Assembly: GCF_004324835.1 (NCBI RefSeq)
Contig: NW_021163190.1
Coordinates: 319,242 to 375,850 of the forward strand
Direction of reading: 5' to 3'
Source: Dendronephthya gigantea
Taxonomy: Eukaryota
DNA: 56,609 nucleotides
Shown: piece after piece, positions 14,591-55,522 of the stretch
How positions within the stretch are numbered: position 1 is the stretch's first letter
Layout of the letters: the number at the start of each line of letters is the position of its first letter
Notes under the pieces: generated by a model
What the model was told of the DNA's origin: nothing
The model's database searches: none
The model's input: the letters and a program-made list of their open reading frames with translations, nothing else
Translations under genes and position numbers: made by a program

Positions 14591-14651
14591 TTTGGATAAA
14601 GTACGATAATATATTAGAAAACTTTATATTATAGTGCTTCCAATGATGAGT

Positions 14652-16128: not shown

Positions 16129-16268
16129 TCCACTAGGCAAATTTATTCGCGCGAACAGATAAAGAAGCGGTTCTACTTTTTCGCGGCGAATTTCTTCACA
16201 AACCAATCAAATCGCTGGATTTCAGATAACGCTTCGCGTCGCGCGAATAAGCTCGCCTAGTGGAAAAC
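16129..16268. mobile_element. Paralogous copy of the MITE at 8810..8956 (right TIR truncated)
   Basis: Block duplication. Confidence 0.5.
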
Positions 16269-16407
16269 TGATTTAAACTTGTGTTACGCAAGGCTATATT
16301 GTGAAACTGAACATTATTGAACTTTAGTAAAACCATTGTAAAGATCTCCTACCTCGTGCATAGAAGAAAATAAAACTATAATTATAACACTTGTTTATGA
16401 CTTAAGG

Positions 16408-16602
16408 CCCTGTTACACGGTGCGATTTTTCTTGCAACTTGCAATGCAATTCTTCTTTTGAGAGATGTAAATTTAGCAACTACAGAACTTTTGTATTTAT
16501 TATTTTCTTACACTAACATTTTGAAGCCTTTTCACCAATTTAGATCTCTTAAAAGTAGAATTGCATTGCAAGTTGCAAGAAAAATTGCACCGTGTAACAT
16601 GG
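16408..16602. mobile_element. MITE with TIR CCCTGTTACACGGTG...TTTTGAGAGATGTAAAT
   Basis: Long TIRs. Related copies at 23530..23760 and 27075..27305. Confidence 0.6.
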
Positions 16603-18057
16603 CTTTTATGTATCGTCGTACATGACTCACTGGTAGAAAATTTCACTAACGCCTGTAAGACCCATCTTTTAAAAAATAAACGAATTCCAAGCCACTTATT
16701 GTGGTCGATTTTTCCGAAGCCAATATACCATATTTATCGTATATCTCAATCGGAAACAATGTCTAGACGCAATGTATATCTTGAGAAATATTCGCGCAAA
16801 TCTATACGCCGGTAGCTTCAAATACAGAAGGTAATCATACTTCTTCAAATCTTTATCATCGCTTTCGGGTTATTTCTTCCTCGGAGAAAACAATCTAGCA
16901 AAATCTAGGCAAAGCTAAAAGGGTTTAAAAAAATTCCTGCCGGATCCGACGTTTGTAGCTATATTTGCTCTGCATTAAAAATCACGGATGCATATACAAT
17001 CATGATAAACATTATAAATTTTTCCTCAATCAAAAAGAGCCATTTTGTTTGCCATTAATTGTCTGTTCCCGATCTGAATAAAGAATTTTTTTACGTTTTA
17101 GACAAAGCATACATGTAATATAGGAGGCAATTTGGAAATCACGGATACCATATTTAAAAAGACGGTCATGCATTAATCACAACAACGAAATGAAAGACCA
17201 CTGTTATTGCATTGTATATACTGAATTGTATTCGCGTTTCGAAGAGGCTTTTCCTTATCAAATTCCATAATGCCTTTTGCAAAATGGCGTACCTAATTAG
17301 CTACTTTCCCCATTTACAAATGATAACAGAATTGCGTGTGGAATTGTTGAATGAAGCAGGCATATTGTATATATTATCTTTGAGATTTGGTTTTGTAACA
17401 GTTTTGCTTCTTTTTAAGCGAACTAACTCGTATAATTAACATAGTTAAAATTACATGTATGCACTACAATCATTGCAACCTATTGCGACAATTATTGCGA
17501 CTGATATATAAAAAATTCCTCACAAAAAATGTTGACCAAATATACCTAGACAATTGGCAATATCACTAGAATTATAAACTCAAAAAATACAATACTTCAT
17601 TGAAACAACAACACTTACATCCTGCACGATAATATCGAAACGAGGTCAGAATTCTACAACATCTTTGGTCGAGAACTTTTTGGAGTAAAGGAACTTGGTT
17701 TGTCGACGAGTACGCGTAACAATAATCACAATTTACAAGTCGCAAGCATTGATGTGTTAATATATTCTAAAAGCTTCCGGTATGGTACCAAAACACTCTA
17801 ATTGATTATACACAATGGACAATGAAGTCTTTGGAGTTTCTTCACGCGCCGTGGAGCAAGGTACGTGTGTGATTATTTAGTTCATTTATCAAAGCTTTCC
17901 TGTCCGGAAATGTGGCTACTTCCATGGCAAGTATAGAAAACATATTCTGATAAGCACAATAATACCATGTGCGATTCTTATTCGTCCGTAAATATACTAT
18001 TCTTTTCGAAAAAGCGAACATATTTCAGGTAGCCGCATTGTAAAGTGTTAGACTATA

Positions 18058-18272
18058 CAGGGTGAGTCAAAAAAAAGTCCCCCCTATTGAAATGAAGCCT
18101 TTGTTGATTTGAATGCATGATCAACGCAGTAGTGTGTAAATAGCATAGTTATTAGGTTGAGGCATTCAAATAAAGCGTCTTGCTTTCAATTGGGTTTATC
18201 ATAATATTAAGGCAATCAGATTCTAACAAAGGCTTGATTTCAATAGAGAGGACTTTTTTCTGACTCACCCTG
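18058..18272. mobile_element. TA-flanked MITE with TIR CAGGGTGAGTCAAAAAAA
   Basis: TA at 18056-57 and 18273-74. Absent from the block 1 paralogue (~9850). Confidence 0.65.
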
Positions 18273-18643
18273 TAGTTATCTTCAGCATCAGACTGTGAAA
18301 TCTCACTCGCATGGTCAACCAACCAGTAGGAACAAAGTTTGTGGTCACCATTCAAAACATTTCACTCAGAGATCATTGCTAAAAAAATCACACAATTTTA
18401 GAGAAATCCTTCAAAGAGGAACTTCTGGTTTCGAGTGATCTGTGACGTAAAACCGTAATGACAAAAAAAATGAAAAAAATTTTAAATCATCAAATATTTT
18501 CGCCCAAACACTCGAAGATCGTTTAAACTAGTTTATATACCTTGCATTAGGTTGTGAACGAAGTTTTGAACAGTATTTAATGGTTGCTAAACACCAAACG
18601 ACAAGGGTTTCTTCAAAATATAATCGGGATTTAATGAATACAG

Positions 18644-18883
18644 GAGCCGGTTGTATCACGCCCGTTTAGCTTAAACGGCGGATAAGTCAAAATTAAATAA
18701 CACTTTTACATCTCTCTTGAATGAGTTAACTTGAATATTATGCACTGAATATGTAGTTGTAAACAGTATCTTTGTATTAAGGTTGAAAACATTTAGTTTG
18801 CTTGTTGAATAAAACGATAGACTTGCTTTCTATTTTGAACTTATCCGCCGTTTAAGCTAAACGGGCTTGATACAACCAGGCCC
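18644..18883. mobile_element. GGCCGGTTGTATC-TIR MITE
   Basis: Empty site present in the block 1 paralogue (aatacag|aagtatatagc at ~10158). Confidence 0.7.
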
Positions 18884-18952
18884 AGAAGTATATAGCTTCC
18901 AAGCCTTCCATTCAAGGTGGGTAGGTAAAGTTGCTATATCAAGTGTATTGTG

Positions 18953-19625
18953 AAATCTGTGGTGCTATACCCAGTTATTATGAGATCAGTGGTGCTATAT
19001 CAAATTATTATTAGATCAGTGGTGCTATATCCAGTTATTATTGGATCAGTGGTGCTATGTTCAGTTATTATGTGATCAGTGGTGCTATATCAAATTATTA
19101 TTAGATCAGTGGTGCTATATTCAGTTATTATGAGATCAGTGGTGCTATATCCAGTTATTATTGGATCAGTGGTGCTATGTTCAGTTATTATGTGATCAGT
19201 GGTGCTATATCAAATTATTATTAGATCAGTGGTGCTATATTCAGTTATTATGAGATCAGTGGTGCTATATCCAGTTATTATTGGATCAGTGGTGCTATGT
19301 TCAGTTATTATGTGATCAGTGGTGCTATATCAAATTATTATTAGATCAGTGGTGCTATATTCAGTTATTATGAGATCAGTGGTGCTATAACTAGTTATTA
19401 TGAGATCAGCGGTGCAAAACTAGTTATTATGAGATCAGTGGTGCTATATCCAGTTATTTTGAGATCAGTGGTGGTATATCCCGTTATTATAAGATCAGTG
19501 GTACTATTTCTAGTTATTATGAGATCAGTGGTGCTATATACAGTTATTATGAAATCAGTGGTGTTATATCCAGTTATTATGAGATCAGTGGTGCTATATA
19601 CAGTGCAATATGAGATCAGTGGAAT
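18953..19625 (+). repeat. 30-bp satellite, paralogous array of about 22 copies
   Basis: Same unit and same flanks as 10228..10598. Confidence 0.9.
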
Positions 19626-19889
19626 GGTTTTTTCCCGCGCGCTGCAGGCTCAACGTTTGTCTGCTCACGGACGGCCTGTTTTGAAATTTACAATGCAGAA
19701 CACAAATATATACAACTTAAAAAACACTAAACTATGCCCATAAGCAACATTGTAAGCGACACAAGTATAAATATATTTGTTTTGGTGGCGAGACGGTCCA
19801 GTATATTACTTGCTTTAAATGCGTGGAAATGAGTGTGCTACAGTTCTAGAGTGCTAGTCAAATAGACTGGCGCTCTAGTTGAACGCGAC

Positions 19890-20085
19890 TCTCGTTTGAT
19901 CAAGCAATGATAGTAGACGAAACTCTCATGTAAACTCTCGCTTGTCAACTCTCATGCAACTCTTGTTCTCGTTTGATCAAGCAATGATAGTTGATGAAAC
20001 TCTCATGTAAACTCTCGCTTGTCAACTCTTGTGCAACTCTTGTTCTCGTTTGATCAAGCAATGATAGTTGATGAAACCATGGTTT
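19890..20085 (-). repeat. 77-bp satellite, paralogous shorter array
   Basis: Same unit, preceded by the same ~130-bp unique segment as 11640..11770. Confidence 0.9.
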
Positions 20086-20509
20086 GGCAAACTGAATCGC
20101 GAAGAAATTTAACATACCTAACTCCTATACCAAATAAAGTCCTTGGCTCCAACGTCAGTCCACGATTAACACGAACTTCAACGAAAGTCGTTGCCCGGCT
20201 GATTACCGCGCAAACATGCACACTGCGATATTTATGTCATTTGAATTACAAAGTGTTGACCGGTTTGGCATTAAATAGGCGAATTTCAAAGACAGTTTTG
20301 ATACTTTCCGTCAAGACAAACACCTCACACCACGCATTGTCAATAAGGACAATGTACATTTCATTAAGAGCCTAATGGTGCATGAAATTAATATTATGTT
20401 AATCCCCCAAAGCAAACGGCTTTGAAAATGTTGAGTTTTTTGTGTGTCGAGGTGATTTTCCAAAATCTTATGTTTGCATAAGCAGAAATCACCAGATTAT
20501 GGAAAGATA

Positions 20510-20772
20510 TTTCGTATATTCTTGGGTTTAAAGGGCCTTAATTTCGAGTGGAATAATTTATACACACTTAAAATTCTAGCCAGGAACAGTTGAAGGAGAA
20601 ATGAGTCAACTATAAGTCCTCCGGGACAAATCGAACCTACGCTATTGCGATGCCGGTGCAATGCTCTTGCCGCTGAGCTACAGAGGTAGCTGACAAGAGC
20701 GAGCATAGTTAATGTGTATAGGATGGTAATGCCGGGAATAGGCGAGGGTAAATCGATTATGATTTTTGGCAC
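20510..20772 (-). mobile_element. Second copy of the tRNA-like SINE-type element
   Basis: About 95% identical reverse complement of 9018..9275. Confidence 0.45.
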
Positions 20773-20799
20773 TTCACTCGATGCAGGTAAATTCTAGAG

Positions 20800-21800
20800 G
20801 TTTAAAGGGCCTTAATTTCGAGTGGAATTAATTATACGCACTTCAAATTCGTATAGTCAATGTTTTTTTAATATACTAGACAGCAAGAATGTGATTAATT
20901 GCTTTGTAAAAGGGTTAATTTCTATGCTGAACGCGAAATAATTTTCACGACATCATTTTTAAATATGATTTCATCCCGTCCGTAAACTATATCGTAACTT
21001 TTCGGCCAGTTTAGGCCTCTGCATTAAATAAATACTTTAAAAAAAAAAAAACACGCCGCCGACAATTGCTGGGAACAAAATCACCCACAAATTTATGCTT
21101 ACAAAGAGCGCTATATGAAGGCTCTAACCCGAAAATTTACAGGGTGTATCAAAAAACTACAAGCCTAATAATTTCAAGGCGCCAACGATATTTTGTTGTT
21201 GAATAGAAGCGAACATATAAATGAATATTAGGTGTGGTTTTTTAACACCCTTTATATTCTTCCATCGCCTCTGGGTAAGTCTATGCTGACATTCAAATAA
21301 GACCTAGTATATTACGAAACAAACTAGTCCTTTATCATATATTATCATAAATTTTCAATGAAAATTTAATCGTTCACGTCAACCCGTCAATTCCACCGAC
21401 GAATTAGTTGGATAATTGAAATAATAATGAACTGCAATTAGATACTAATTGCTTGCATTAAAGAGATTTCTCACAACGTTTGCCGGTCAACAACGAACAG
21501 TCAAGTTCAAAGCGAATATCTTCGTACAATAATCACTTTGTTGTACCGAAATTCTTTGAAATCAACTTCACCATATTAGATGTATGTTATCGAAATGTTC
21601 CCGCCTACAATGTGAGGTTTAATCTTGCCGAAACGGTAACATTAAAGGCCTAATTTTTTCTTCAGATTTTCTTTGATTTGCAGTCCATCAAATATCAGAT
21701 CATATTCGACTAACCTTTTCCTTAATTGCGGTAAACTCGCTCTTGTTTTTTCCTTGATTTTCTTCTCCAATCTGCAAAAGTCATAAAAAATCAGTGTCAC
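20800..21800 (+). repeat. Dispersed repeat copy B
   Basis: See copy A. Confidence 0.7.
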
Positions 21801-22184
21801 GTAAACTCCGTGTTTTTGTTATTTTTATTAATGCTTAACGTAGATAATTCTTACGCTAATACTCTCTTGTGATAAATAAAGATTCTCTCTATTCCCCAAG
21901 ATGACGATGAGTGAAGTTATATGTTATTATTCGTATATCAAATACTCGAGTAGTTTTTTTTGTGGAATGCTTGGAATGCAGGAAAAAAGTAGTCGAAGAG
22001 TCGCTCAACGCGTGTTACAATGCTTCTTTTACAAAGTTTTGCTGCGGGTATAGGACCCTTCTAATGAAAATACACAAACTAGGTTATGTATTAAAACAAC
22101 TTCTTCGATTTTAAGCTTATTTATTATCCCCGCCTTCGTTTAATATCAGAGAGATATTTACCCTCATATTTGGCGCAAAGCGTG

Positions 22185-22615
22185 AAAATAACCTTTTTTA
22201 TCCCTCTGAAACGTCGAAAATGACCCTTTTTATCCCTCTGGAACGTCGAAAATAACCTTTTTTATCCCTCTAGGACGTCGAAAATAATCTTTTTTCCCTC
22301 TAAAACGTCGAAAATAGCTTTTTATCCCTCTGGAACGTCGAAAATAACCTTTTTTATCTCTCTAGAACGTCGAAAATAACCTTTTTTATCCCTCTAGAAC
22401 GTCGAAAATAACCTTTTTTCCCTCTAGAAGGTCGAAAATAACCTTTTTATCCCTCTAGAACGTCGAAAATAACCTTTTTTCCCTCTAGAACGTCGAAAAT
22501 AACCTTTTTTCCCTCTGGAACGTCGAAAATAACCTTTTTATCCCTCTGGAACGTCGAAAATAATCTCTTTTATCCCTCTGGAACGTCTGAAATGACCTTT
22601 TCTATCCCTCAGACT
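22185..22615 (+). repeat. Satellite of about 31 bp (tatccctctggaacgtcgaaaataaccttttt), about 13 copies
   Basis: Direct observation. Confidence 0.9.
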
Positions 22616-22619
22616 AGAC

Positions 22620-22990
22620 AATTCCTAAATTAGGGGCCGATTACATGGGTCATTTTCCACCCCGGGGCTGAGAACTTCAGAATAACAAATTCGCATTTTG
22701 TTTTCAGTCACGTGCGTAAATGGCACAACTACGCATGCTCGAATATCTTCAGCCCTACGTTGAAACGATTACATAACAAATTTTCAGCCCCGGGGCTAGT
22801 TTCACCCTAGGGTTGAGATTTCAGCTCGGGTGGCTCAGGCAGGGATGAAATTTCAACCCTGGGGCTGAAAATTTGTCATTTTTTTGAGGCTGTCACCCCC
22901 CCTGCCAAAATTTAGCAATATGGCGCGCGCGATATTGCTAAATTTTGGCAGGGGGTGACTGCCTCAAAAAAATGCACTTACTAAGTGACG
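22620..22990. repeat. Palindrome-rich segment. Three CAGCCCCGGGGCTG-type mini-palindromes, followed by a near-perfect ~93-bp palindrome centred on ggcgcgcgcg (~22880..22972).
   Basis: Arms gaggctgtcaccccccctgccaaaatttagcaatat / atattgctaaattttggcagggggtgactgcctc. Confidence 0.8.
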
Positions 22991-23394
22991 AATCATGACG
23001 AATCACGCTTACGAAAAAAGTACAGGAGTTCTACTTCTGTTAGGTATTCTGTGCCTGAAGGGAGGATATGAATTCAAGACTGTCGCTGATGTTTGCAATG
23101 GTGGAAAATTTTAATAAATTCAAATTGAAATGAGTATATTAAAGCATATCACAAATATAGTTTAGTGCGAGCTTGAATTTGTACTTTTTTTTCTTTGTAC
23201 ATTTCATTAAAATTTGAATCTAAACCTTAAAATGGTTGTAATGAGTTTAGGTTGGGCAAATCTTTAAACAACCTTATCAGGGATGATTATGTTGTTTAAA
23301 GGAATAATTTTAGCAAAAATTACCCGAATTTTGGTACAATTTGATGAAAAAATTTGCTAAACTCAACTTCTCTAGACTTAAATACCTCTAGAAG

Positions 23395-23512
23395 GCTAGC
23401 TGCCCCCGCTCGTATCACTCCCCCCCCCGTATCACTCCCCCCCCCGTATCACTCCCCCCGTATCACTCCCCCCCCGTATCACTCCCCCCCGTATCACTCC
23501 CTCAAGCGTTCC
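23395..23512 (+). repeat. C-rich 15-17-bp tandem repeat (CCCCCCCGTATCACT)n, about 7 copies
   Basis: Direct observation. The complementary strand carries G7 runs. Confidence 0.9.
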
Positions 23513-23529
23513 ACGCTTATGGGTAATTA

Positions 23530-23760
23530 GATATTCGACCCCGTTCTTCCCTGTTACACGGTGGATTTTTCTTCACGAGCGTGAAATACAATTCTACTTT
23601 TAAGAGATGTAAATTAGTGAAGAGTCTTGAAAATACGAGTATTGGACGCACGGTAATAACGTCGATGCAGTGTAATAAACACAAACGTTTCGTAGTTGCC
23701 ACATTTACATCTCTCAAAAGTACAGCAAGCTGCACAAAAATTGCATATATGAAACTGCAT
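23530..23760. mobile_element. Related GTTACACGGTG-TIR MITE
   Basis: Shares TIR and internal sequence with 27075..27305. Confidence 0.55.
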
Positions 23761-23796
23761 TAAAGCACGACTCATTTCTTTATCATTAGCATTATA

Positions 23797-23845
23797 GATT
23801 AGATTAGCATTAGATTAGATTAGATTAGATTAAATTTGTCATCTA
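23797..23845 (+). repeat. (GATTA)n-type microsatellite
   Basis: Direct observation. Confidence 0.9.
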
Positions 23846-23967
23846 GTACATTATTACTAGATGACAAATTTTTGTTTACAAAGAGCGCTATATCACGGCT
23901 CTAAGCCGAAAATTTACATAATTTCAAGGGGCCTACGATGTTCTGTTGTTGAATAAAAGCGAACATA

Positions 23968-24494
23968 CCGTAAATGATCGATTAAGCACCGCTACTCGAA
24001 TAAGCGCCGCTGTCGAATAAGCGCCGCACCTCAATAAAAAAAAATTAATAAGCGCCGCTATCGAATAAGCGCCGCGGCGCCTATTTAGGAAGATATAAAT
24101 AAACGCTAAAAAATGTAGAAATAAACGATTCTTTATTTAAACGCGTTAATCCTAACATTTAAACTATTTAGAACGACGGCCAGTATTGAAACTTTAAAGT
24201 TTTATTGTCGAATATCTCTTACAACCGGGCTCTTATGACAGTTCTGATAGGTTAAAACACTTCGGTATGTCGTCGATTCACCCTATATGCTGTGAACAGT
24301 TAGCGGAAATCATTAACCCAACTTCGCGCTTTCTTTTTCCTGTAACTTCTACCAAAAGTTTATTCCATTCATCGGCCTTCAGAAACTGATAATCTATTTG
24401 CTCACTTTGAAATAAGCGCCGCTGTCGAATAAGCGCCGCGTTTTTAAATCGATATTTGCAATGAGTGCCGCGGCCTTTAATCGATCATTTACGG
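23968..24494. mobile_element. TA-flanked non-autonomous DNA element (TIR CCGTAAATGATCGATTAA, internal cgaataagcgccgc repeats) inserted in repeat copy C
   Basis: TA at 23966-67 and 24495-96. The paralogous empty site in copy B reads gcgaacatataaatgaatat. Confidence 0.75.
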
Positions 24495-24988
24495 TATATG
24501 AATATAAGTGTCGTTGCAGCTACACCCTATATATTCTTCCATGGCCTCTGGGCAATACTGACAATCAAACGAGACCTGGTAGCTATATTATGAAATAAAC
24601 TAGTCCTTTATTTGTTACATAAAATCAATGAAAACTTCATTGTTCACTTCAACCCGTCACTTCCACCGACGAATTAGTTGGATAATTGAAGTAATAATGA
24701 ACCGTAATTAGATGCTAATTGCTCGCATTAAAGTTTGTAAAATGATTCATTTTGTCACAACGTTCGGCGATCGACAACGAACAGTCAGTTGAAAGCGAAT
24801 ATCTCCATTCAATATAATCTCTTTGTTGAACCGAAAATTTTCAATACGATTTCAAGTTTTTCTTGGCAAGTTTTATTTGCTCTTTCGTACGCGAAAAAAT
24901 TGACAAGTTTTCCTTGACAAGGAGCCTTGTTCAAAAGCTAGTCATGACTTCAAAAGCTTTTCAACAGGCAAAAATGCTCTTGTAACCG

Positions 24989-25500
24989 CGCAGTAGGGAA
25001 CAGCGCAGTAGGGAACAGCGCAGTGGGGAACAGCGCAGTAGGGGACAGCGCAGTGGGGAACAGCGCAGTAGGGGACAGCGCAGTAGGGAACAGCGCAGTA
25101 GGATACAGCGCAGTAGGATACAGCGCAGTAGGGAACAGCGCAGTAGGGAACAGCGCAGTAGGGAACAGCGCAGTAGGGAACAGCGCAGTTGGGAACAGCG
25201 CAGTAGGGGACAGCGCAGTAGGGAACAGCGCAGTAGGGAACAGCGCAGTGGGGAACAGCGCAGTAGGGGACAGCGCAGTAGGGAACAGCGCAGTAGGGAA
25301 CAGCGCAGTAGGGAACAGCGCAGTAGGGAACAGCGCAGTAGGGAACAGCGCAGTAGGGAACAGCGCAGTTGGGAACAGCGCAGCAGGGAACAGCGCAGCA
25401 GGGAACAGCGCAGCAGGGAACAGCGCAGCAGGGAACAGCGCAGTAGGGAACAGCGCAGTAGGGAACAGCGCAGTAGGGAACAGCGCAGTAGGGAACAGCG
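24989..25500 (+). repeat. 15-bp minisatellite (gcgcagtagggaaca), about 34 copies
   Basis: Copy A has a single copy of the motif at the orthologous site (~13530). Confidence 0.9.
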
Positions 25501-27074
25501 CAACAATCTTCGTGCCAATAGAACAGGTTTGTTTTCTTTTGAGGTTTTATCATTTCTGTTTGTTTGGAGATTCGGTCGTATACTCATTTTATCATCCCTC
25601 GTTTTATCGTAAATATACTCCTATTATTGTAAAACTTGTCAAGAAAAAAATGGTCAATTTTTTCGCGTAAACACAAGCAAATAAAACTTGTCAAGGAAAA
25701 CTTGCCCGTCTGTACGGGGCTTTATCAAAATATTCACGCCCACAATCTAACGTTAAATCTTGCCGCAGCCGTAAATGATGGTCGTACTAAACATTAAAAA
25801 AAAAGCCGGCGCGCACGAAAAATGTCACTGGTGAGCATTGGTGTCATGGTCAACCATTCATTTCAATGCATTGAAATGGTGTTAACAGGACAAGCTCACT
25901 ATCATCTGAGGTAAAGACCTCGCGAGGCTGTTAGTTCAGCAAGTTACTCTCGTGTGCGGATCGTTTTCGTGAGGAACTCGCCTCGAGAAGCAAGTTTCTC
26001 ACGTTTGTGGATAGATTTCGGGCGCACACTAGGCAACTAGTGACACGACTCGTGTGCACCGACATTTAAGGCATCAGATCATGATTGACTAACCTTCTGG
26101 CTAATTGTGGTATACTTGTCCTCGCTATTTCGTACTCTTTTATCTCCAATCTGCAAAAGCATTGAAAAAAATGTCACGTACAATTTCCCATTCGGTGTTT
26201 TTTATGGAGTATTGTCTACGCTTTCTGTCGGTGGAATGAATGTTCACAACCGCATCACCAGAATGGTATCAGATGACGTCGAGAAATTATATGAGCCTTC
26301 TGGTATTCGCCTTGTCTCGGTTATATTTGTATAATGAAGAAGGTTGGATTCCTTGGTATGTGAGAAGATAATTTAGAATAGCTTAAGGCGTTTAAAAAGG
26401 CTGCTTTCGCAGGAAGTTTTGCAAGAAGTGTACAGTCCTTCCAACCGGAACTGGTCAGTGAAAATGTACAGACGAGTTTATACATAAGACAACCTAATCA
26501 ATTTAAGGTTTTTGGGCAAAGGTGTTTGTACAAAACTGACTATTAAAATATTGTTTGTCGGTTCCATAATAAACGAAAGGCAGAACTTTAATATTATATG
26601 GGGAGATGCTTTGCGCCTGCATAGTTCTTTAAAATTTGTGCCTGAGTTCTGGGACGTTGAAAATGGCCTTTTTTCGCTATTAGGCAGCAGTTCTTCACTA
26701 TAATGAATAATAAAACCATACCACAAATATAGTAAAGTGCGATCTTGAATTTTTACATTTTTATTGTGTACATGCATTTACCGTATCTATTCGTTTGAGG
26801 TCCACCGAACGACTAAATTCGGTATTCAATATTTGAATCCGAAATGAATTTGTATCATTCACATAAGAATCGGGACATGAAAAGTTCAAAGTCTGAAACA
26901 GGGCTTGCGAGCGTGCATGCGAGAGCTTGAATTTGTAGCCTTTGAGCGCCGCCGCAAGTTCTAAAAATTTAAACAGCACCGCTGTTCTGAAACGACTAAA
27001 TACGGTATATAATACTTGAATCTCAAATGATTTCAACTTGCCCAACTTTTCTAGATTTAAATATTTACGCTTAG

Positions 27075-29630: not shown

Positions 29631-30240
29631 GTCTAGAACTGTCTAGAACTGATAGAGCTATCCAGTAGAAATAAAGTTAGTTTAGTTTAGGTTTCCTCCT
29701 GTAGTAACACTGGATCAATAAGAGATGATCCTTACTGGACCTCTAGGAAGAACAGTTTAGAACTGATAGAGCTATCCAGTATAAATAAAGTTAGTTTAGT
29801 TTAGGTTTCCTCCTGTAGTAACACTGGATCAATAAGAGATGTTCCTTACTGGACCTCTAGGAAGATCAGTTTAGAACTGATAGAACTATCCAGTATAAAT
29901 AAAGTTAGTTTAGTTTAGGTTTCCTCCTGTAGTAACACTGGATCAATAAGAGATGATCCTTACTGGACCTCTAGGAAGAACAGTTTAGAACTGATAGAAC
30001 TATCCAGTATAAATAAAGTTAGTTTAGTTTAGGTTTCCTCCTGTAGTAACACTGGATCAATAAGAGATGATCCTTACTGGACCTCTAGGAAGAACAGTTT
30101 AGAACTGATAGAGCTATCCAGTATAAATAAAGTTAGTTTAGTTTAGGTTTCCTCCTGTGGTAACACTGGATCAATTACTGGACCTCTAGGAAAAACAGTT
30201 TAGAACTGATAGAGCTATCCAGTATAAATAAAGTTGGTTT
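29631..30240 (+). repeat. 114-bp satellite, about 5.4 copies
   Basis: Period counted as 114. Unit: cagtttagaactgatagagctatccagtataaataaagttagtttagtttaggtttcctcctgtagtaacactggatcaataagagatgatccttactggacctctaggaagaa. Confidence 0.9.
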
Positions 30241-30510
30241 ACCATAATTGGAGTAAGTACTCTGTGGGGTTGCCTGTCGCTTGCGACCAAGTTTATAAAT
30301 AAATAAATAAGTTCAGGTTTCCTCCTGTAGTAACCTGGATCAATAATAGATGATTGTCAAAAAGGTTTCTTTCATGGAAATACCCAGCGGCCGGTTACAT
30401 AAAACTCTTAACTTCATTTTCAGCGATTAAATCTAAGTTAACCGGCAAATGTACACTCTTCTTTGGGAATTCTAGCCAGCGCTAAAAGTTAGCTATCGTT
30501 TTAACAATCT

Positions 30511-30751
30511 GGGCCTGGTTGTATCAAGCCCGTTTAGCTTAAACGGTGAATAAGTTTAAAATAGAAAGCAAGTCTATCGTTTTATTCAACAAGCAAACTA
30601 AATGTTTTTAACCTTAATACAAAGATACTGTTTACAACTACATATTCAGTGCATAATATTCAAGTTGAGTCATTCAAGAGAGATGTAAGAGTGTTATTTA
30701 ATTTTGACTTATCCGCTGTTTAAGCTAAACGGGCTTGATACGACCGGCCCC
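30511..30751. mobile_element. GGCCGGTTGTATC-TIR MITE
   Basis: About 40-bp TIRs; the internal sequence is shared with the other copies. Confidence 0.65.
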
Positions 30752-32105
30752 TGACCAGGTGTTCAATTCAAGAGTTGCATGTTTGGACAGGATATGCAAC
30801 ATATGGCCCACGTTAAAATGCATAAGCCGTGAATATAGGCACTTAATATTAACAACAAAATGTTGGGCGATCTTTTCCATGCACGGCTGAACGAAAGCCT
30901 TCGCAGGAAGACAGCAACGCTTGCATGTAGTTTTACGATTCTTTTAAACTATGAATGTTGTTGTCACTTGTTAGAGCAGCCATGCAATGCAGCTTCATAT
31001 ATATAAACAAATCGATCTGATTTGCTTTCAACTCGCAGTAAAAGTTACAAGAGCAGCTCATGGGTATCAGGAAAGGTCGAAAGATTGCGACAAACGATTG
31101 AAGTTTGCATTTAAAGCGATTAATCTGCTTTCCTAGAAGACGATACAGCGATTATTATATTTTTAAAAACAGTTTGTATTAATTTCTTTGGCGGGAAAAG
31201 TATTTGTATGTAAACACGCGCATATTAGCCACAATTTGCGAGTCTCAGAAATTCGTTTAGAATACGGAATTTTGCATTCAAACAATTGAAACAAACTAAA
31301 ATATATTTGCCGCCGAATAAATAGAACTAGCTTTGCAACTGAGCGAGGAGGACTAACGAGTAACGAGCAAGTTCCTTTAAGTTCGTTCCACGAACCACTA
31401 GTGTATGGCGCGTTTACATTTGTCGGATATTTGAACAAAGTGTCTTTCATATATATAATAAACTCGCGTAACCTTGGCTAAATGAATTATGCTATACCCG
31501 TAATCTACAATAACAACAACAAACTCATTCAAATCGCAAACACCATAAATCCTGTGGTTCATAGCACGAGTTCTTTGGTGTATCGACATGACACGATGTT
31601 TGAAGTGTTTTCATACGATACACGCAATAACATCGGTTATAATTTCACAACACAGTGATTTTCAATCAAAATACCTCAGATAAACCGCCTGAACGCCTTC
31701 CAGCCGTCGGGAACAACTCCGAAGCATCTATTAGACGTATTTCAATAAAATATCCCGGTCGCTTACCTTAAATAGTGGTTGATTTTCGAAACAGGCATCT
31801 CTAATGAACTCTGATCCCCATTACACGTCTTCAAGCGATTTGTCTCGTCATGCAAATTTCGTCTTTTATACTTTTAGTTAATTACATACCAGAAGCTACG
31901 GGAAGTCAACGTTGATTGACAAATGGCTCGCAAATGATGACAGATTGCTCTAAGAGCGTATATCCCGTCAATGAGTTAACACGCGTCGTTGGTGAATTGC
32001 CAAGTTGTGGAAATTCAAAAAGGTGAAAGGCTATTATAAAGACGTGATTGTCGCATTTCTCGACCACATACACTACTGAGCTGTTGATGATTAAACGTTT
32101 ACGTT

Positions 32106-32412
32106 TTCTCCTGTAGTAACACTGGATATTGAAGAGATGATCCTTACTGGACGTCTAGGAAGAACAGTTTAGAACTGATAGAGCTATCCAGTATAAATAA
32201 AGTTAGTTTAGTTTAGGTTTCCTCCTGTAGTAACACTGGATCAATAAGAGTTGATCCTTACTGGACCTCTAGGAAGAACAGTTTAGAACTGATAGAGCTA
32301 TCCAGTATAAATAAAGTTAGTTTAGTTTAGGTTTCCTCCTGTAGTAACACTGGATCAATAAGAGATGATCCTAGCTAAACCTCTAGGAAGAGCTATATCC
32401 AGTATAAATATT
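32106..32412 (+). repeat. 114-bp satellite, about 2.7 copies (left arm of an inverted pair)
   Basis: Same unit. Confidence 0.9.
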
Positions 32413-32794
32413 GTTGTGATTAGTTTTAAGTGCTCAAGTAGGTGACAAAGTCTTTAAACAGTTTAGCAATGCAAATTTTTAGCGGAAAAGGTTTATCATT
32501 TTCTGTCCATAAAACACCAGAAAGGCTGCGCGTTTCCTTTGCTGTGCAATCGTGTTTAGCCTCTTTGCGTTCTGACGGAGAAGGGAAATTCCTAGCTTTA
32601 TACTTCCATATTTGACAAGTTCCTAACCGACCCAGAAACGTCATTTTTTTGTTCTTGCGTTATAACATTGAAAACGAAATTGATCTGACGTTTATTAGTT
32701 GACTGCTAGTGGTTTTCAAATCACTGAAATTGACATTCGGATATGATTAATCGGCTTAGAGTAGAGAAGATATATATTAGATTAACCGCATTAG

Positions 32795-33222
32795 AGGTTC
32801 GGTAAGGATCATCTCTTATTGATCCAGTGTTACTACAGGAGGAAACCTAAACTAAACTAACTTTATTTATGCTGGATAACTCTATCAGTTCTAAACTGTT
32901 CTTCCTAGAGGTCCAGTAAGGATCATCTCTTATTGATCCAATGTTACTACAGGAGGAAACCTAAACTAAACTAACTTTATTTATACTGGATAACTCTATC
33001 AGTTCTAAACTGTTCTTTCTAGAGGTCCAGTAAGGATCAACTCTTATTGATCCAGTGTTACTACAGGAGGAAACCTAAACTAAACTAACTTTATTTATAC
33101 TGGATAGCTTTATCAGTTCTAAACTGTTCTTCCTAGAGGTCCAGTAAGGATCATCTCTTATTGATCCAGTGTTACTACAGGATGAAACCTAAACTAAACT
33201 AACTTTATCTATACTGTTATAA
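32795..33222 (-). repeat. 114-bp satellite, about 3.8 copies in inverted orientation (right arm)
   Basis: Reverse complement of the unit. Confidence 0.9.
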
Positions 33223-35171
33223 TATGACCTAATGTATCACAAATAAACAACATACTACACACGGAAAAACAATTAAAACATGACCGGCAATTCCTCACTA
33301 TCCTGCTTTATCATTCGGATTGTTCTGTTGGTTTCCGGCCGCATCTTTTACAACGGAAAAAACAGCAACAAATGACAAAAGGCTGTGTCACTTCACAGTT
33401 CAAACTTGATAATTCGTGCCACAACACATGCTTTACGCATGTACATCACATGAACCATCTCAGCGTTTCGCCATAAAAGCAGTTATTATATCTTTCAGTT
33501 AAAGAAACACTGGTTGAAATACTTCGGAGCGTAAAAAATGCTTCAAAAGTATATGAAAATGAGATAAAAACTGTAATATCGCAATCAATATGGATTCGAA
33601 GGTCAAGATTGCATCATATTTCACACATGAGCGCTTAAACACTCAGTTTGATGAAAAGATATTAGATTTTTCGATGAAAGGTCAAGATGGCGGTTTTTCT
33701 TAAGCAGCCTTTGAATGGTTAGTTTGCGTCAGTTAAAAACGCCTTCCGTGTGTCTGTAACTATTTATTTTTTTAAGGGATTTACTATAAGATCAACGAAG
33801 ATTCCATTCTGTTCCGTGGTTCGACAATTGAAGGTCATTTTGATCATCTTTCGTTCGATAGCTCTCAGTCGGTCTCGGCGGGCCTTTTCAGTTGTCGTTT
33901 GAAAATGCCGGCGTTCAAGCAACGCTTACTCGCAGAAATTACGACGAAATATAGACCATGATTAGCCTTTAAGAGACTGTAAATTAGGTGAAAAGTCGTG
34001 TCGTTTAGTTCCTCTAGAGATCTTCCGAAAAAAAGCTAGAAATCTGCTCAGTTTAATATGTTAAAATGCCCTTCGCAGTTTATAGCTCAAAGGTCCTACT
34101 TGCTGTGAAAACGGCCACGGTTTCAATGGGTATAAACATTGCATGTTATCGCGTTTTTTATTACAAACGGCGTGTGTTTGTTCCTAGCAATTGACATGTC
34201 GGCTTTCCACAAGTTCCGACCTTTGGAAATATGCATTAATTCATTAGCGTTTGGCACAATCGCTTTTTAAAGAATCACACGCACGTTGATGGGTCGCTTG
34301 AGGCAGCCACGGGTTTGAGCGATAAAGCCTTTCTGTCATGAAATAACACTTTCAGGAAATGTTTATATATCTCCATCTATCAAATTGTCGTCACGAAAAC
34401 CTCTCCTGTAAACTGTGGTCGTATGCTCGGGTCTACACTTCGATTTTTTCGAGTGAAAATCGATTTGTTTGTATGGCCATTGAGATTTCAGATTTTGATC
34501 TAAATTTCAAACGCTTCACGTTTGCAAGACGATTTTGTTCAAGTATTTTGAGAGTCGTTTTGAAGTGAAGAACCGTGGCGGTTTTTCACCATTTATTTGC
34601 TTGGCTTAATTGTGAATATTTAAAATATTGACAATGCTATAGCTGTTGACTACGGTATATATCACGTTACCAACAGCACAGCTCTAGAAATGGCATCTTT
34701 GAATGGCAATTAATGATGTAAGCTTGTTGCCAAACGCTATGCAGAAAATATAGCTCTGGGAAAGCTCAAAGCGAGCAAAAATCGCTCTATAATCAAAGTA
34801 ACCTTCATAAAAAACCTTTTAATAACGTCTCGGGTTTTGCAGTTGTATTTTTTTCACGAAAGAAGCAACTGAATACAATCATATTTTCATATCGCAACGG
34901 GTTACTAGTAACCTGCCGATAAGAGCGGTATTTTTGGCCGGTTTCCACGAATTATGTTTGGTAAAGTTAACCAGACTTCCTGCCATGAATGGGGTCAATT
35001 TCCGGCTCTTCCAAGGGATGCATTCACCTCAATTAAACCTTCTATAAAGGCGATACTCCATCACGGTCGCAGCATATAGGAAGATTTTTCAAATGGAGGA
35101 TTGTTATTATTATCATATTTAACCAGGATACCTACATCATCTATAGTGTTTTTCAGTGGGGCCCTGATTAA

Positions 35172-43250: not shown

Positions 43251-43490
43251 GGGCCGGTTGTATCAAGCCCGTTTAGCTTAAACGGTGGATAAGTTCAAAA
43301 TAGAAAGCAAGTCTGCCGTTTTATTCAACAAGGGAACAAAATATTTTTGACCTTATTACAAAGATACTGTTTACAACTACATATTCAGTGCATAATATTC
43401 AAGTTGACTCGTTCAAGAGAGATGTAAGAGTGTTATTTAGTTTTGACTTATCCACCGTTTAAGCTAAACGGGCTTGATACAACCGGCCCC
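43251..43490. mobile_element. GGCCGGTTGTATC-TIR MITE
   Basis: As above. Confidence 0.65.
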
Positions 43491-43715
43491 TGAAAAACGG
43501 ATGCCATTGTTAAACTGGTTTTTATTTTTCTATGCGAGGTAGCAGGATCTTTACAACGTTGAAACTACTGTTCTTAAATGTTTGCCTTTGGTTATGTCTT
43601 TTATGCCTTTCGTATATGTTCTTCCTTATTGAACTTCTAAAGGTTTCATATGATTTTTACTCCGTACTTGGGTACGTCAAAAGCCCGAGTGGGCTGACCC
43701 TTATCCAACCAATCA

Positions 43716-43956
43716 GGGGCCGGTTGTATCAGGCCCGTTTAGCTTAAACGGTGGATAAGTCAAAATTAAATAACACTCTTACAACTCTTTTGAATGAGTC
43801 AACTTGAATATTATGCACTGAATATGTAGTTGTAAACAGTATCTTTGTATTAAGGTTAAAAACATTTAGTTCGCTTGTTGAGTAAAACAATAGACTTGCT
43901 TTCTATTTTGAACTTATCCACCGTTTAAGCTAAACGGGCTTGATACAACCAGCCCC
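43716..43956. mobile_element. GGCCGGTTGTATC-TIR MITE (opposite orientation to the 43251 copy)
   Basis: As above. Confidence 0.65.
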
Positions 43957-44664: not shown

Positions 44665-44682
44665 GCAACCGTGCATACGACA

Positions 44683-44923
44683 GGGGCCGGTTGTATCAAG
44701 CCCGTTTAACTTAAACGGTGGATAAGTCAAAATTAAATAACACTCTTACAACTCTCTTGAGTGAGTCAACTTGAATATTATGCACTGAATATGTAGTTGT
44801 AAACAGTATCTTTGTATTAAGGTTAAAAACATTTTGTTTGCTTCTTGAATAAAACGATAGACTTGCTTTCTATTTTGAACTTAACCACCGTTTAAGCTAA
44901 ACGGGCTTGATACAACCGGCCCC
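44683..44923. mobile_element. GGCCGGTTGTATC-TIR MITE
   Basis: As above. Confidence 0.65.
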
Positions 44924-45400: not shown

Positions 45401-46198
45401 CTAATAATTATATTTAACAGTGATAAAATTACTAAATCGTTCTGTATTTGTTTGTAGTTGTCGGCTTCCGTGTTCATGCCTCAAATTATATTCATTGGTA
45501 GAAACGCTAGTCTGTCTTTCAATTGCATCACGAGGGGGGTTAATTGTAACATTATCTTCTTTTAATTTATTTATAAATAATTTGCAAGAACTATCTCTCC
45601 GTGACCATAAAGTTTGGAGTCCAATATGGTTCAGTGCGTTTGCATACGACAAATCTGGGATAATAATACGTAGAGCTCTTTTTTGAATGGATTCGATCAT
45701 GTCCGACTGCTTCTTCGTTAACGCTGACCATGCTGGGTACTCCAAACAAGGCCTAATAAAGGTGGAATATATAGTTACGAGATTCTTGACACTTAGTCTG
45801 GCTTTTTTTAATTGTCGCAAAGCATAAAGCCTAGAATTCGATTTTTTGATGACATAATCAACGTGATCAAACCAAGAGAGATCATCCCTCAACTATACTC
45901 CAAGCAATTTAACCGATTGTACCAATTCACCGTCAATATAGATTGGATTCCCGTACGGGAGTTCATATTGGAGAAAGGATATACTCATATCTTTACACTT
46001 CTTAGAGTTTAATTTCATTCCTCTGGCAGATGCAAACTGGGAAATTTCATTTACGAGAATGGGCATAAGGCTGGGGGAGCAACGGTGAATAACTTCCAGG
46101 GCGCTTGTGTCATCAACATACTTAATTCGCGCGTTCCAATCTTTCAGAAGGGAATTCAACCATGGTCGAGTTCGCCGGAAAACGACTAATTCAACCAT
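45401..46198 (-). pseudogene. Fragment of a non-LTR (LINE) reverse transcriptase, with one in-frame stop
   Basis: Has YVDD (the YXDD motif), then GMKLNSKKCKDM, then ...KLLGV*MRDDLSWFDHVDYVIKKSNSRLYALRQLKK. From my recollection of LINE RTs, the usual consensus there is LGVxIDxxLSWxxHI...RLxxLRxLK. The two listed ORFs are contiguous in one frame across a stop at 45893-95. Confidence 0.7.
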
Positions 46199-46609
46199 GG
46201 TCGAGTTCGCCGGAAAACGACTAATTCGACCATGGTCGAGTTCGCCGGAAAACGACTAACTCGACCATAGTCGAGTTCGCCGGAAAACGACTAATTCGAC
46301 CATGGTCGAGTTCTCCGGAAAACGACTAATTCGACCATGGTCGAGTTCTCCGGAAAACGACTAATTCGACCATGGTCGAGTTCGCCGGAAAACGACTAAT
46401 TGGACCATGGTCGAGTTCTCCGGAAAACGACTAATTGGACCATGGTCGAGTTCTCCGGAAAACGACTAATTGGACCATGGTCGAGTTCTCCGGAAAACGA
46501 CTAATTGGACCATGGTCGAGTTCTCCGGAAAACGACTAATTGGACCATGGTCGAGTTCTCCGGAAAACGACTAATTGGACCATGGTCGAGTTCGCCGGAA
46601 AACGACTAA
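46140..46609 (+). repeat. 35-bp satellite (accatggtcgagttcgccggaaaacgactaattcg), about 13 copies, beginning seamlessly inside the LINE RT sequence
   Basis: The unit read on the minus strand encodes VELVVFRRTRPW, which is the N-terminal peptide of the LINE ORF fragment. Confidence 0.9.
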
Positions 46610-46778
46610 AGGCGGATCTCCACTTACAGCGAAATCGTTCGCCAGCGAAATATTTGCATATTTTCTTTTGAATTTTAACAGCATAAATAAATTAGTTCGA
46701 CTTGACTGTTCTCAATTCAAAAGAAAATATGCAAATATTTCGCTAGCGAACGATTTCGCTGTAAGTGGAAATCCGCCT
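46610..46778. mobile_element. Tourist-like MITE with 3-bp TAA TSD, inserted in the 35-bp satellite
   Basis: TAA at 46607-09 and 46779-81. Removing the element restores the satellite unit cgactaactcgacc. Confidence 0.8.
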
Positions 46779-46832
46779 TAACTCGACCATGGTCGAGTTC
46801 GCCGGAAAACGACTAATTCGACCATGGTCGAG
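46779..46832 (+). repeat. 35-bp satellite, the segment between the MITE and the copia element
   Basis: Same unit. Confidence 0.9.
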
Positions 46833-47154
46833 TGTTAAAGTATGCTCTATTATATTCCAAATATTCCAATATATATGTATCAATCAACTGTAAATAGATT
46901 TAATTTAGATTTATGAGTGATCAAATGATTCCATAGATTCCATAGATGCAAGTGTAGTAAATGTTTCTTTAATGAAAGCCAAATATGGTAACCAAATGTA
47001 AAATGAAATGTTATCCGTCCTAAAGAGATTATCATGTAACCACTTATATATAGATGTAACTTTCCTTGTATACATCAGAGTGAATAAAACTGTGTAACCC
47101 TAAAGTTGTGCTGTGAATATAAAGGAGTGGCAAATGGCTACCCAAAACTCAACA
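46833..47154 (+). repeat. copia 5' LTR
   Basis: About 2 mismatches over 322 bp against the 3' LTR. Confidence 0.9.
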
Positions 47155-47353
47155 GGTTATGGGCCCAGGAGAGCTCTGGTCTTCGATGGAAACGAATCGA
47201 AGTACGAATTATGGGAGGTAAAGTTTTTATCCTTTATGCGGATCCAAAAACTTTACAACTATTTTTGTGCCTAGCAGCGATGAGCGTGAGCTAGATTAGT
47301 CGAAGAATGCCGATGCCTTCGCCGAACTTGTACAGTGTTTAGATGACCGAAGC

Positions 47354-50300
47354 TTGTCCCTAGTCATAAGGGAGGCAAAAGATGAGGGTCGAAAGGCTTT
47401 AACAGTGCTGAGAGAGCACTACCAAGGAATAGGAAAACCCCGAATTATAGCCCTGTACACCGAACTTACTTCACTGAGAAAGGGGGAAAGCGAGTCAACA
47501 ACGGACTACATCATACGAGCGGAGACCGCGGCGACAGCGCTGAAAGCAGCAGAGGAAATAATAAGCGACGGCTTATTAATTGCAATGGTTTTGAAAGGCC
47601 TTCCTAGGAACTATAAAACATTCTCTACTGTGATAATCCAACGAGAAAAGCAGATGACATTCAGCGAATTCAAAATAGCCCTGCGAAACTACGAAGAGAT
47701 TGAAAAGAGTTGCCATGGTACGGAAGGCAAAGACAACGTGATGTATGCCGCCAAGACGAAATTCGACGGAAAATGCTTCAAATGTGATAAGAAAGGTCAT
47801 AAGAGTTCCGAATGTTGGCTAAAGAGCGAAAAATGGTGTGCCAAATGTCGAACCAAGACCCACAATACAAGAGATTGTAGAGCCGCAAAGAAGGACGCAG
47901 CGAAGCTTATCAACGGACAAGTGAAGAATCAAGATTTGGATGAACATTCATTCGCATTTACGTTAAAAGATGGTAAAGGTAGGAGTACGAAGAATTCGAA
48001 GCTTCTCGTGGACACTGGGGCGACCAGCCACATAATTAATGATAGGTCTAGGTTTGTAAGCTTTGACAAGAACTTTGATCCGAACAGTCACTTTATAGAA
48101 CTTGCCGATGGAAGCAAGGCTAACGTAGTTTTAGGGAAGGGAAATGCAATGGTTAAATTGTTTGATGTAAGGGGTAATGTACAAAATCTAATGCTAAGCG
48201 ACGCACTTTATATACCGTCCTACAGTCAAAATATTTTTTCAGTTTCGGCAGAAATAGGTAGAGGAGGATCGGTTGCTTTAGGAGAACAGGTAAGTAAATA
48301 CACTACAGCTGAAGGTCAGGTATTTGAGATAGAAGAGAGAGAGCGTTTGTACTATTTAAATAGTATCTCTTCTTCGTGTAACAATGCTACCTCCATTAAT
48401 GAGTGGCACAGGATTTTAGGCCATTGTAACTTTGGAGATGTGCGTAAATTAGAGCAGGTAGTCAAAGGGATGAAAATCATAGACCACAGCGAGAAAGATT
48501 GTGAAGTATGCATTCAAGGAAAGATGTGTCAGAATAGAAACCGAGAGCCAGATCAGAGAGCTAAAGCACCTTTAGATTTTGTCCACTGTGACTTGGCAGG
48601 GCCAATTGAGCCCGTTGCCAGAGACGGATTTAAATATGCATTGTCTTTTATAGACGATTATACAGGTATCAACATGATATATTTCTTAAAGCGAAAGAGC
48701 GACACTTTAGAAGCCACAGAAAAATTTTTGGCCGATGTTGCGCCTTATGGTAAAGTTAAAAGGATACGAAGCGATAATGGTGGTGAGTTTACGAGTCAAG
48801 AATTTAAATCTCTCTTACGAAAGCAGTCAATAAGACACGAGACGAGTGCCCCGTATTCCCCTCACCAAAATGGAACTGCAGAAAGAGCGTGGCGAAGCCT
48901 TTTTAGCATGGCTAGGTGCTTGCTATTGGAGGCAAAACTACCAAAACGGTTGTGGACCTACGCTGTGATGGCTTCAGCCTACATAAGAAATAGATGCTTC
49001 AACCAACGCTTAGAGAAGACACCATTTGAGGCGTTGACAGGTAAGAAACCAAATTTAAATAATATGCATGTATTCGGCACAACACGCTATGCTTTTTTGC
49101 AGAACACCAAGAAAATAGACGCAAAGAGCCGTAAAGGTATATTTATAGGGTACGACAGAGGTAGCCCATCTTACTTGATATACTATCCGGAATTAGACAA
49201 GATAGAAAAGGTACGTTGTGTCAAATTCATTGACAACTTCCAAGGCAAAGACAATAAACTCAACGATCTTGATGAGTTTGTACCCGCCAGAAAACCTTCG
49301 AGTACTAGCAATGAAAACCCCAAAATGCCGAGTACAGTTGAGGAGAGCTCGAATAATCTCGAAACAATCAGCGAAAATGTAACAAACAACACCGAGGTGG
49401 TTGCCGAGGGAGATAGGTATCCAACAAGAGTTCGCAATAAGCCAAATTATTTCGATCAAAGCAAATTAGATGACACATTAGGTGAGAATGTTAATTACAC
49501 TGTTGATTATTGCTATAGAGTTGCGAACATTCCAGTGTGCTATAAACAAGCACTTGAGTTGCCTGAGGCAAACAAATGGCAAAAGGCAATGGAAATTGAG
49601 ATGAAAGCGTTGACAGATAATGACACTTTTGATTTAGTACCGCGACCTAAGGATAGACAGGTAGTGGGGGCAAAGTGGGTTTACACTATAAAAACAAATC
49701 AAGAGGGAGAGGAAAAATATAAAGCTAGATTTGTAGCGAAAGGGTATTCTCAAGTTTCAGATATAGATTACCAAGAAACGTTTGCACCAACTGCACGCAT
49801 GAGTTCGATCCGAATGTTATTACAACGTGCCGTGCAAAACGACATGATTATTCACCAAATGGATGTGAAAACAGCATACCTTAATGCGCCAATCGACTGC
49901 GAAATATATATAGAACAACCTGAAGGTTTTGAAAAGCGAAATGATAGCGGTGAAACGTTAGTTTGTAAGCTGAAAAAGTCGCTATATGGTCTAAAACAAA
50001 GCGGCAGGAATTGGAATAATCTACTCCATCAATATTTGATTAACGAAAACTTTATTCAATCTCTTGCAGATCCATGTGTGTATGTGCGTACAATAGATGA
50101 TAAACGATGTGTGATCGTAATCGTTTGGGTCGACGATATCATAATCGCCTCGAGTGATTCAAATTCACTACAGAGCGTGAAAAAGTCTCTTAAAGAAAGG
50201 TTTAAAATGACCGACCTAGGGATTCTAAAATGGTTTTTAGGCACTGAATTTCAATGCAGTGAAAACACAATTAAAATGAGTCAAACCCGGTACATTGAAA

Positions 50301-51088: not shown

Positions 51089-51184
51089 GTTCATAATTGC
51101 GCATATAATTTTAAAGCGATGGCCCGCCCTGCTGCACGCCATCAAATAAATAATTTACTATAGAACATAAAGAGCAAGTGGGGG

Positions 51185-55265: not shown

Positions 55266-55280
55266 GTATTGTACTGTATG

Positions 55281-55487
55281 ATAGAGTTATCCAGTATAAA
55301 TAAATTAGTTTAGTTTAGGTTTCCTCCTGTAGTAACACTGGATCAATAAGAGATGATCCTTACTGGACCTCTAGGAAGAACAGTTTAGAACTGATAGAGT
55401 TATCCAGTATAAATAAAGTTAGTTTAGGTTTCCTCCTGTAGTAACACTGGATCAATAAGAGATGATCCTTACTGTACCTCTAGGAAC
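55281..55487 (+). repeat. 114-bp satellite, about 1.8 copies inside a tetraspanin intron
   Basis: Same unit. Confidence 0.9.
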
Positions 55488-55522
55488 AATTAGAAACAGT
55501 CTAATTACTCGTTTTTTTCCAG

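Follow-up and report, generated by a model that had tools for sequence, protein, structure and literature searches.

Satellites are usually pictured as diverging by species-specific concerted evolution, and BIV160 of bivalves and the sturgeon satellites represent ancient, slowly changing satellite DNAs. Unique segments that lie between inverted repeats are known to flip, as in the plastid inverted-repeat flip-flop, the yeast 2-micron plasmid and human inverted low-copy repeats. Among foldback elements, Tetris of Drosophila virilis has arms composed of an outer flanking domain, tandem repeats and an inner domain, together with a middle domain, and generates TSDs of 8-10 bp (PMC4079207). Cg_HINE of Crassostrea gigas carries conserved 50-100-bp flanks, subterminal inverted repeats, a microsatellite and a 3′ palindrome (PMC7492417). 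For the Tribolium satellites, no regular pattern of array ends was reported, and extrachromosomal circular DNA has been proposed as a route of dispersed-satellite spread (PMC11610590).

Here we analyze a 56,609-nt stretch of the Dendronephthya gigantea genome (contig NW_021163190.1, positions 319,242 to 375,850; hereafter the window), in which two oppositely oriented arrays of a 114-bp repeat flank a unique spacer. An earlier note, made from the letters of the window, had compared this arrangement to a foldback like Drosophila FB.

Arrays of the 114-bp repeat in the window

The inverted arrays had been placed at 32106..32412 (+) and 32795..33222 (-), around a unique spacer of ~380 bp. Both arrays were recovered within ~10 bp of these positions (arrays B and C in Table 1), and the spacer has no match elsewhere in the window. 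Tandem Repeats Finder delimits array B at 32097-32391 (2.6 copies, 93% matches) and array C at 32792-33216 (3.7 copies, 95% matches). Traced by hand and with nhmmer, array B continues in degenerate form to ~32410-32424. Its 3′ end corresponds to unit position 40 in a strict reading or 52 by nhmmer, and its last unit carries a 19-bp internal deletion and a 2-bp insertion. The outer end of array C lies exactly at unit position 29 and its inner end at 111.

Table 1. Features of the window and 114-bp arrays of the Paramuricea clavata tetraspanin locus (L003)
Feature	Coordinates	Strand	Description
Array A	29635-30246 (Tandem Repeats Finder 29635-30241)	+	5.4 units, positions 1 to 50, 96% to consensus
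Relic partial unit	30288..30355	+	positions ~28-96, ~87% identical, 47 bp past array A
MITE-like element	30508..30754	+	246 bp, ~50-60-bp terminal inverted repeats; not satellite
Block b	31502..32042	+	single-copy, non-coding, homologous to P. clavata L003 4414-4945
Array B, left arm	32097-32410	+	~2.9 units of 114-bp repeat, starts at unit position 51
Spacer between B and C	32411-32791	.	unique, 381 bp
Array C, right arm	32792-33216	-	3.7 units, 97% identical to consensus
Array D	55279..55495 (Tandem Repeats Finder 55279-55486)	+	1.9 units, last intron of tetraspanin-33-like gene
P. clavata array P1	L003 4001-4276	-	
P. clavata array P2	L003 5143-5901	+	
P. clavata array P3	L003 6303-6673	-	
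P. clavata array P4	L003 9344-10313	-	
P. clavata array P5	L003 12332-12474	-	

A repeat search identified inverted arms at 32097-32391 and 32900-33194, which are 95% complementary over 295 nt. When 32080-33240 was folded as single-stranded DNA, B paired with C in one long hairpin of -355.8 kcal/mol, in agreement with the large hairpin that the earlier note had expected of these arms. No Pfam domain was found in ORFs of the spacer or of the A-B interval.

Plain arrays of the same unit had been reported at 29631..30240 and in a tetraspanin intron at 55281..55487, and arrays A and D lie within ~10 bp of these positions. The tetraspanin assignment holds: the spliced exons match PF00335 at E=6.9e-43 and are identical to the NCBI protein 'tetraspanin-33-like [Dendronephthya gigantea]'. 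Array D occupies most of the ~255-bp intron between ...FAFACVQ and LFLILIV.... The relic unit beyond array A shows that an older generation of the 114-bp repeat was present at the locus.

The MITE-like element in the A-B interval is one of six 246-bp copies in the window (30508-30754, 18641-18886, 43251-43493, 43713-43956, 44681-44922 and 52435-52680), which are 92-96% identical among themselves. The first coding intron of the tetraspanin gene (53538-54342) is full of a 17-bp satellite (47 copies), and its P. clavata counterpart contains an 8.5-unit 114-bp array (L003 9344-10313). The last tetraspanin intron (window 55268-55522; L003 12273-12474) carries the 114-bp repeat in both species, with array D (+) beginning 13 bp past the 5′ splice site and the P. 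clavata array (-) 62 bp past it. These arrays represent either two independent insertions into one small intron or one old array that was inverted.

A 35-bp satellite array (46153-51770) hosts a Copia-type LTR retrotransposon (46832-51506) with LTRs that are 99.4% identical, an intact 1244-aa gag-pol ORF and a flanking 5-bp TSD (TCGAG). A palindromic MITE-like element of ~175 bp (46604-46781) forms a second interruption of this array. A tandem segmental duplication (7826-14587 vs 14588-26563, ~89-93% identity) includes two satellites, one of 30 bp (10208-10596 / 18932-19622) and one of 77 bp (11835-12325 / 19890-20077). Beyond the large-ORF gene at 3449-7827, a third 77-bp array (2984-3439) runs in the opposite direction.

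The 114-bp family across octocorals

We sourced further loci through matches to unit peptides and through orthologues of the large ORF (window 3449-7827), which added arrays from GCA_949826985.1 and four ENA assemblies. The eight sampled regions contain ~34 arrays of 0.6-8.8 units, introns included, with at least five at the P. clavata tetraspanin locus. The repeat had been described as mobile or dispersed, and its dispersal is borne out by its presence in two separate parts of the window (cluster A-B-C, and array D), in P. clavata, in four further octocoral assemblies and on a host contig within a bacterial MAG. The family appears to be undescribed; literature searches on octocoral and cnidarian satellites, with partial unit sequence in full text, retrieved neither the unit nor descriptions of octocoral satellites.

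The MAG contig was found by an exact 27-mer of the unit, which matched one 'Mycoplasmatales bacterium' contig in the bacterial genome collection; exact-pattern scans returned no match in the metagenome collection (two patterns) or the viral collection. This contig (CBDATY010000004.1, positions 8001-17385; L001+L002) carries an 8.8-unit direct 114-bp array, a 33-bp satellite in 51 copies and an ORF for a LINE-type reverse transcriptase (RVT_1, E=5e-13), and has no long ORF typical of a bacterial genome. It is octocoral host DNA binned into a bacterial MAG. The repeat thereby pollutes databases, with host DNA in at least one bacterial MAG and at least 767 spurious ORF 'proteins' recovered by a unit-derived peptide from ENA, JGI and NCBI-derived collections. 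One such satellite translation (P0058) is named 'ribosomal protein L7Ae-like RNA K-turn-binding protein'.

The family has the makeup of a dispersed satellite, with head-to-tail non-coding monomers in many short arrays that lie in gene-rich DNA and share no flanks. Coding potential was ruled out, as all six reading frames of the unit are closed and neighbouring ORFs have no Pfam domain. We also rejected an RNA gene or self-cleaving ribozyme repeat: the unit matched no Rfam family at gathering score (chance-level hits only, E>1), and its fold is not unusually stable (z-scores -0.6 and -1.3).

The 3′ ends of arrays cluster, with 17/30 falling in a 20-bp interval at unit positions 35-54 (scan p<0.001) and a broader cluster across the family at positions 35-63; the clustered ends fall inside an AATAAA + (AGTTT)n stretch. 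The 5′ starts are not clustered (p=0.15). This 3′-fixed, 5′-variable polarity resembles 5′-truncated retroposition. LINE retroposition was nonetheless set aside as no more than a possible mechanism: the 3′-end clustering fits, but there are no TSDs at any array and no LINE recurs upstream of arrays. The single reverse-transcriptase ORF near an array, 1.4 kb upstream on the MAG contig, has no relatives beside the other arrays of this small sample. If the arrays were LINE-driven, the 3′ UTR of the partner LINE would end in ...CCAGTATAAATAAAGTTAGTTTAG. A Helentron- or MITE-type carrier with conserved flanks was likewise rejected, as an all-against-all comparison of the 200-bp flanks of ~26 arrays found only an orthologous exon and degenerate units to be shared.

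The majority consensus of the unit is identical (0/114 differences) in seven octocoral sources, namely the window, P. clavata, GCA_949826985.1, three ENA assemblies and the MAG contig. Among five sources (the window, P. clavata, GCA_949826985.1 and two ENA assemblies), the large-ORF orthologues are only 35-55% identical, and over the sources as a whole 33-55%. Individual arrays are 79% to 99.5% identical to the consensus, a spread which indicates that old and young copies coexist, and the array identity matrix has no species structure.

We infer that arrays are renewed from a pool without sequence drift, for which constraint on the unit, a conserved mobilisation signal and repeated horizontal spread are candidate explanations. 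A further reading, possible but less likely than not, is that the unit is sequence-constrained, either as a platform to which a host protein binds or as the cis-sequence of a mobile system that remains active. The master copy would then have remained unchanged across octocoral genera, while arrays, the inverted pair and the tetraspanin intron array among them, would persist very long at their loci and be overwritten from the pool.

The inverted pair and other inverted neighbours

If the locus were an FB/Tetris-like element, B and C would be its terminal inverted repeats and the spacer its middle domain, and it would move by cut and paste. Part of this comparison stood: B and C are long inverted arms built from tandem 114-bp subrepeats around a non-coding middle, and, as with FB and Tetris, plain arrays of the subrepeat occur elsewhere (PMC4079207). 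The proposed TSD, common termini and homogenisation of the arms did not.

At the outer ends of the pair (32097/33216), the longest common word is 5 bp, equal to the chance median. With array A taken as the left arm instead, the longest shared word is 6 bp and lies inside the satellite, again giving no TSD. This differs from Tetris, with its 8-10-bp TSD and its outer flanking domain (PMC4079207). The outer termini of B and C differ (unit positions 51 vs 29). Their outer flanks are no more alike than shuffled controls, and no common domain was found in outer or inner array flanks against such controls. Arm-to-arm identity is 94.9% for B and C, compared to 96.2% for C and A and 96.7% for C and P. 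clavata P4. B and C are not homogenised with each other, unlike the arms of FB and Tetris.

Other inverted pairs with different spacers had been suggested as a check. They exist, with unrelated spacers, at other loci and in other species, but they have no common termini and are no more frequent than random orientation predicts (13/24 adjacent array pairs in seven sampled loci). Convergent and divergent neighbours are both present, with spacers of 4 to 866 bp; among the convergent pairs, the short spacers measure 381 bp (window), 401 bp (L003), 640 bp (L011), 863 bp (L014) and 4 bp (L016). One pair, L011 2203-2898 / 3539-3810, has near-equal outer ends (unit positions 15 and 13), as would suit a foldback. 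The inverted pairs therefore follow from the dense scatter and random orientation of arrays.

At L016 19825-20257 (ERZ25071788), the + and - arrays on either side of the 4-bp spacer form a near-perfect palindromic junction; this locus is truncated on the right.

The tetraspanin locus of Paramuricea clavata and the origin of the pair

Our sole cross-species comparison is with the P. clavata tetraspanin locus, represented by the draft contig L003. After satellite masking, only the tetraspanin exons (~77-78% DNA identity), block b and one weak ~100-bp match align between L003 and the window. Block b aligns to L003 on the same strand (60% identity over 512 bp, E=1.4e-17) and reciprocally by nhmmer (E=5e-21 and 7e-20), and no other copy was found in the ~250 kb sampled. 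The two species have in common the order of block b, + array, spacer (381 bp / 401 bp) and - array, and the right arms, C and P3, both start at exactly unit position 29.

About 108 bp of the spacer (32445-32552) match L003 6171-6272 in reverse complement, at ~62% identity. The local score of this alignment (24.5) was reached by 0/1000 dinucleotide shuffles, and its nhmmer E value is 0.003; no same-orientation similarity between the two spacers was detected. B and P3 end near position 52 in unit orientation, with homologous unique sequence within ~6 bp; the arm that bears this junction is the left one in the window and the right one in P. clavata. No cross-species homology was found in the second half of the spacer, the outer right flank or the interval between block b and the left arm.

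The weak match (~100 bp, E about 1e-4 to 1e-5, 70% identity) joins window 34654-34763 to L003 87-199; the piece is inverted between the two species and falls on a different side of the array cluster in each. This piece could reflect a further rearrangement or a small mobile element. Upstream of P. clavata tetraspanin exon 1, L003 7963-8030 contains a telomere-like interstitial (TTAGGG)n tract of ~11 copies.

The homologous arrangement, with its homologous piece of spacer, stands against a foldback transposon. Spacer and block b, both single-copy, each have a homologue at the corresponding P. clavata locus, so the structure is old and resident and not a recent insertion; and as neither has another copy in the ~250 kb sampled, they are locus sequence and not the middle domains of a transposon. 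In FB and Tetris, by comparison, the middle is not a single-copy segment conserved, together with an upstream block, at the same locus in another genus. On the defining features that were tested, the locus fails as a foldback transposon; this reading is unsupported, and we regard it as very improbable. A foldback transposon here would be the first for octocorals, and the evidence points away from it.

The dense scatter and random orientation of arrays are also what would be expected if B and C were independent insertions in the D. gigantea lineage that landed 381 bp apart in opposite orientations, carried by extrachromosomal circles, retroposition or another route, with the likeness to P. clavata being coincidental. 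B and C do differ in length, end positions and variants. Around the large-ORF gene (window 3449-7827), array positions are unshared, with arrays in L009 and none in L007 or L008, suggesting that most arrays are lineage-specific. Some of the positional agreement could be chance, as the P. clavata locus is array-dense (5 in 12 kb). However, what follows the homologous block b agrees between the two species in order and orientation, the right arms start at an identical unit position, and homologous unique sequence adjoins the same array-end junction; by a rough estimate, all of these agreements together would arise by chance in <1% of cases. We consider such a coincidence rather unlikely.

A local rearrangement could also have produced the pair, either from one A+B+C array that was split by a 1.85-kb insertion and whose distal part was inverted with its flank, or, in a variant, with C as an inverted duplication made by template switching. 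Array A stops at position 50, B begins at 51, and GTTTAC is found at either side of the 1.85 kb; the inner end of B (40-52) overlaps the outer end of C (29) by 12-24 bp, as in a staggered-break inversion; and a variant T at position 91 is common to unit 2 of B and unit 2 of C. However, the 1.85 kb holds block b, which in P. clavata also lies between arrays, P1 and P2, so the A-B interval is ancestral locus sequence and not an insertion. An end at position 50 is moreover the family norm and no breakpoint marker. On these two grounds we rejected A+B as one array split with a GTTTAC duplication. A lineage-specific staggered-break inversion is weakened by the same geometry in P. clavata, where the left arm ends at 43 and the right arm starts at 29, which argues against a one-off event in one lineage. 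Jointly, the split-array and template-switching versions are clearly improbable.

Long-read assemblies are known to fail at inverted repeats, and a foldback chimeric long read, for example, could create a spurious pair. Against such an artefact, the arms are 5% diverged and unequal (2.9 vs 3.7 units), have different end positions and enclose a unique 381-bp spacer, and an independent assembly of another species has the same layout. We assign an assembly artefact next to no probability.

On balance, B and C probably represent a long-resident inverted pair, formed by a dispersed octocoral repeat, whose arms have mediated the inversion of the intervening spacer. The two arrays would be neighbouring short members of an abundant family, set head to head, and not the ends of one element. 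The occurrence of the same order upstream of the orthologous tetraspanin gene in P. clavata suggests that the pair is old. Its inverted arms would act as a substrate for recombination between them, and one or more exchanges between the arms may have inverted the spacer after the lineages separated. Such an exchange would place the array-end junction on the left arm in the window and on the right arm in P. clavata.

Inversion of the spacer alone fits 2/4 arm junctions and inversion of the whole unit fits only 1; the junctions that disagree between the window and P. clavata are the left outer ends (51 vs 86) and the other inner ends (111 vs 43). As the cause of the spacer inversion, we infer recombination between the arms. 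The arms have no excess similarity to each other, which suggests that they seldom exchange sequence. G at unit position 114, considered as a variant private to the P. clavata arms, was discarded as a marker: it recurs in unrelated arrays and is therefore no evidence of arm exchange.

The arrays evolve unlike their flanks. Read as orthologous, B and P3 are ~92% identical, compared to ~60-62% for the adjoining sequence. Arrays stay about 92-97% identical to one cross-genus consensus, and conversion or fresh insertion out of a sequence-constrained pool may renew them continually. If the pair is homologous and its spacer flipped, the locus would be a clean natural example of inversion by inverted satellite arrays. 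Should the unit indeed be sequence-constrained, the inverted pair would represent a conserved invertible module beside tetraspanin-33, and, if the pair is transcribed, a ~300-bp hairpin RNA could result.

Among known repeat families, Cg_HINE/DINE-1 Helentron repeats resemble the 114-bp family in their short arrays (1-9 units), 100-200-bp monomer, lack of TSDs and very many copies, but, unlike in Cg_HINE, no flanks are shared among the ~30 arrays here (PMC7492417). The Tribolium castaneum satellites Cast1-9 and TCAST likewise form short arrays scattered in gene-rich DNA and introns, with abrupt junctions, no common flanks and mixed ages (PMC11610590, PMC3411249). Unlike in Tribolium, the 3′ ends of arrays are strongly clustered here and the 5′ starts are not, and the consensus is identical across deeply diverged genera, with no species-specific concerted evolution. 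A consensus that is fixed across genera with ~22% tetraspanin exon difference contradicts the usual picture of satellite divergence. The absence of any consensus difference over 114 positions is also tighter than is known for BIV160 and the sturgeon satellites. A monomer common to distant species is a feature that the family shares with these ancient satellites (PMC5139131). Overall, it behaves like a dispersed euchromatic satellite, with the additional features of an invariant cross-genus consensus and polar array ends.

The inverted pair itself can be compared with the plastid, 2-micron and human low-copy flip systems. As in those systems, a unique segment is found in both orientations, here in two species, and the junctions travel with the segment. 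Unlike in those systems, the repeats are short satellite arrays of 0.3-0.4 kb that are 95% identical, and the comparison of two species points to one inversion over a long time.
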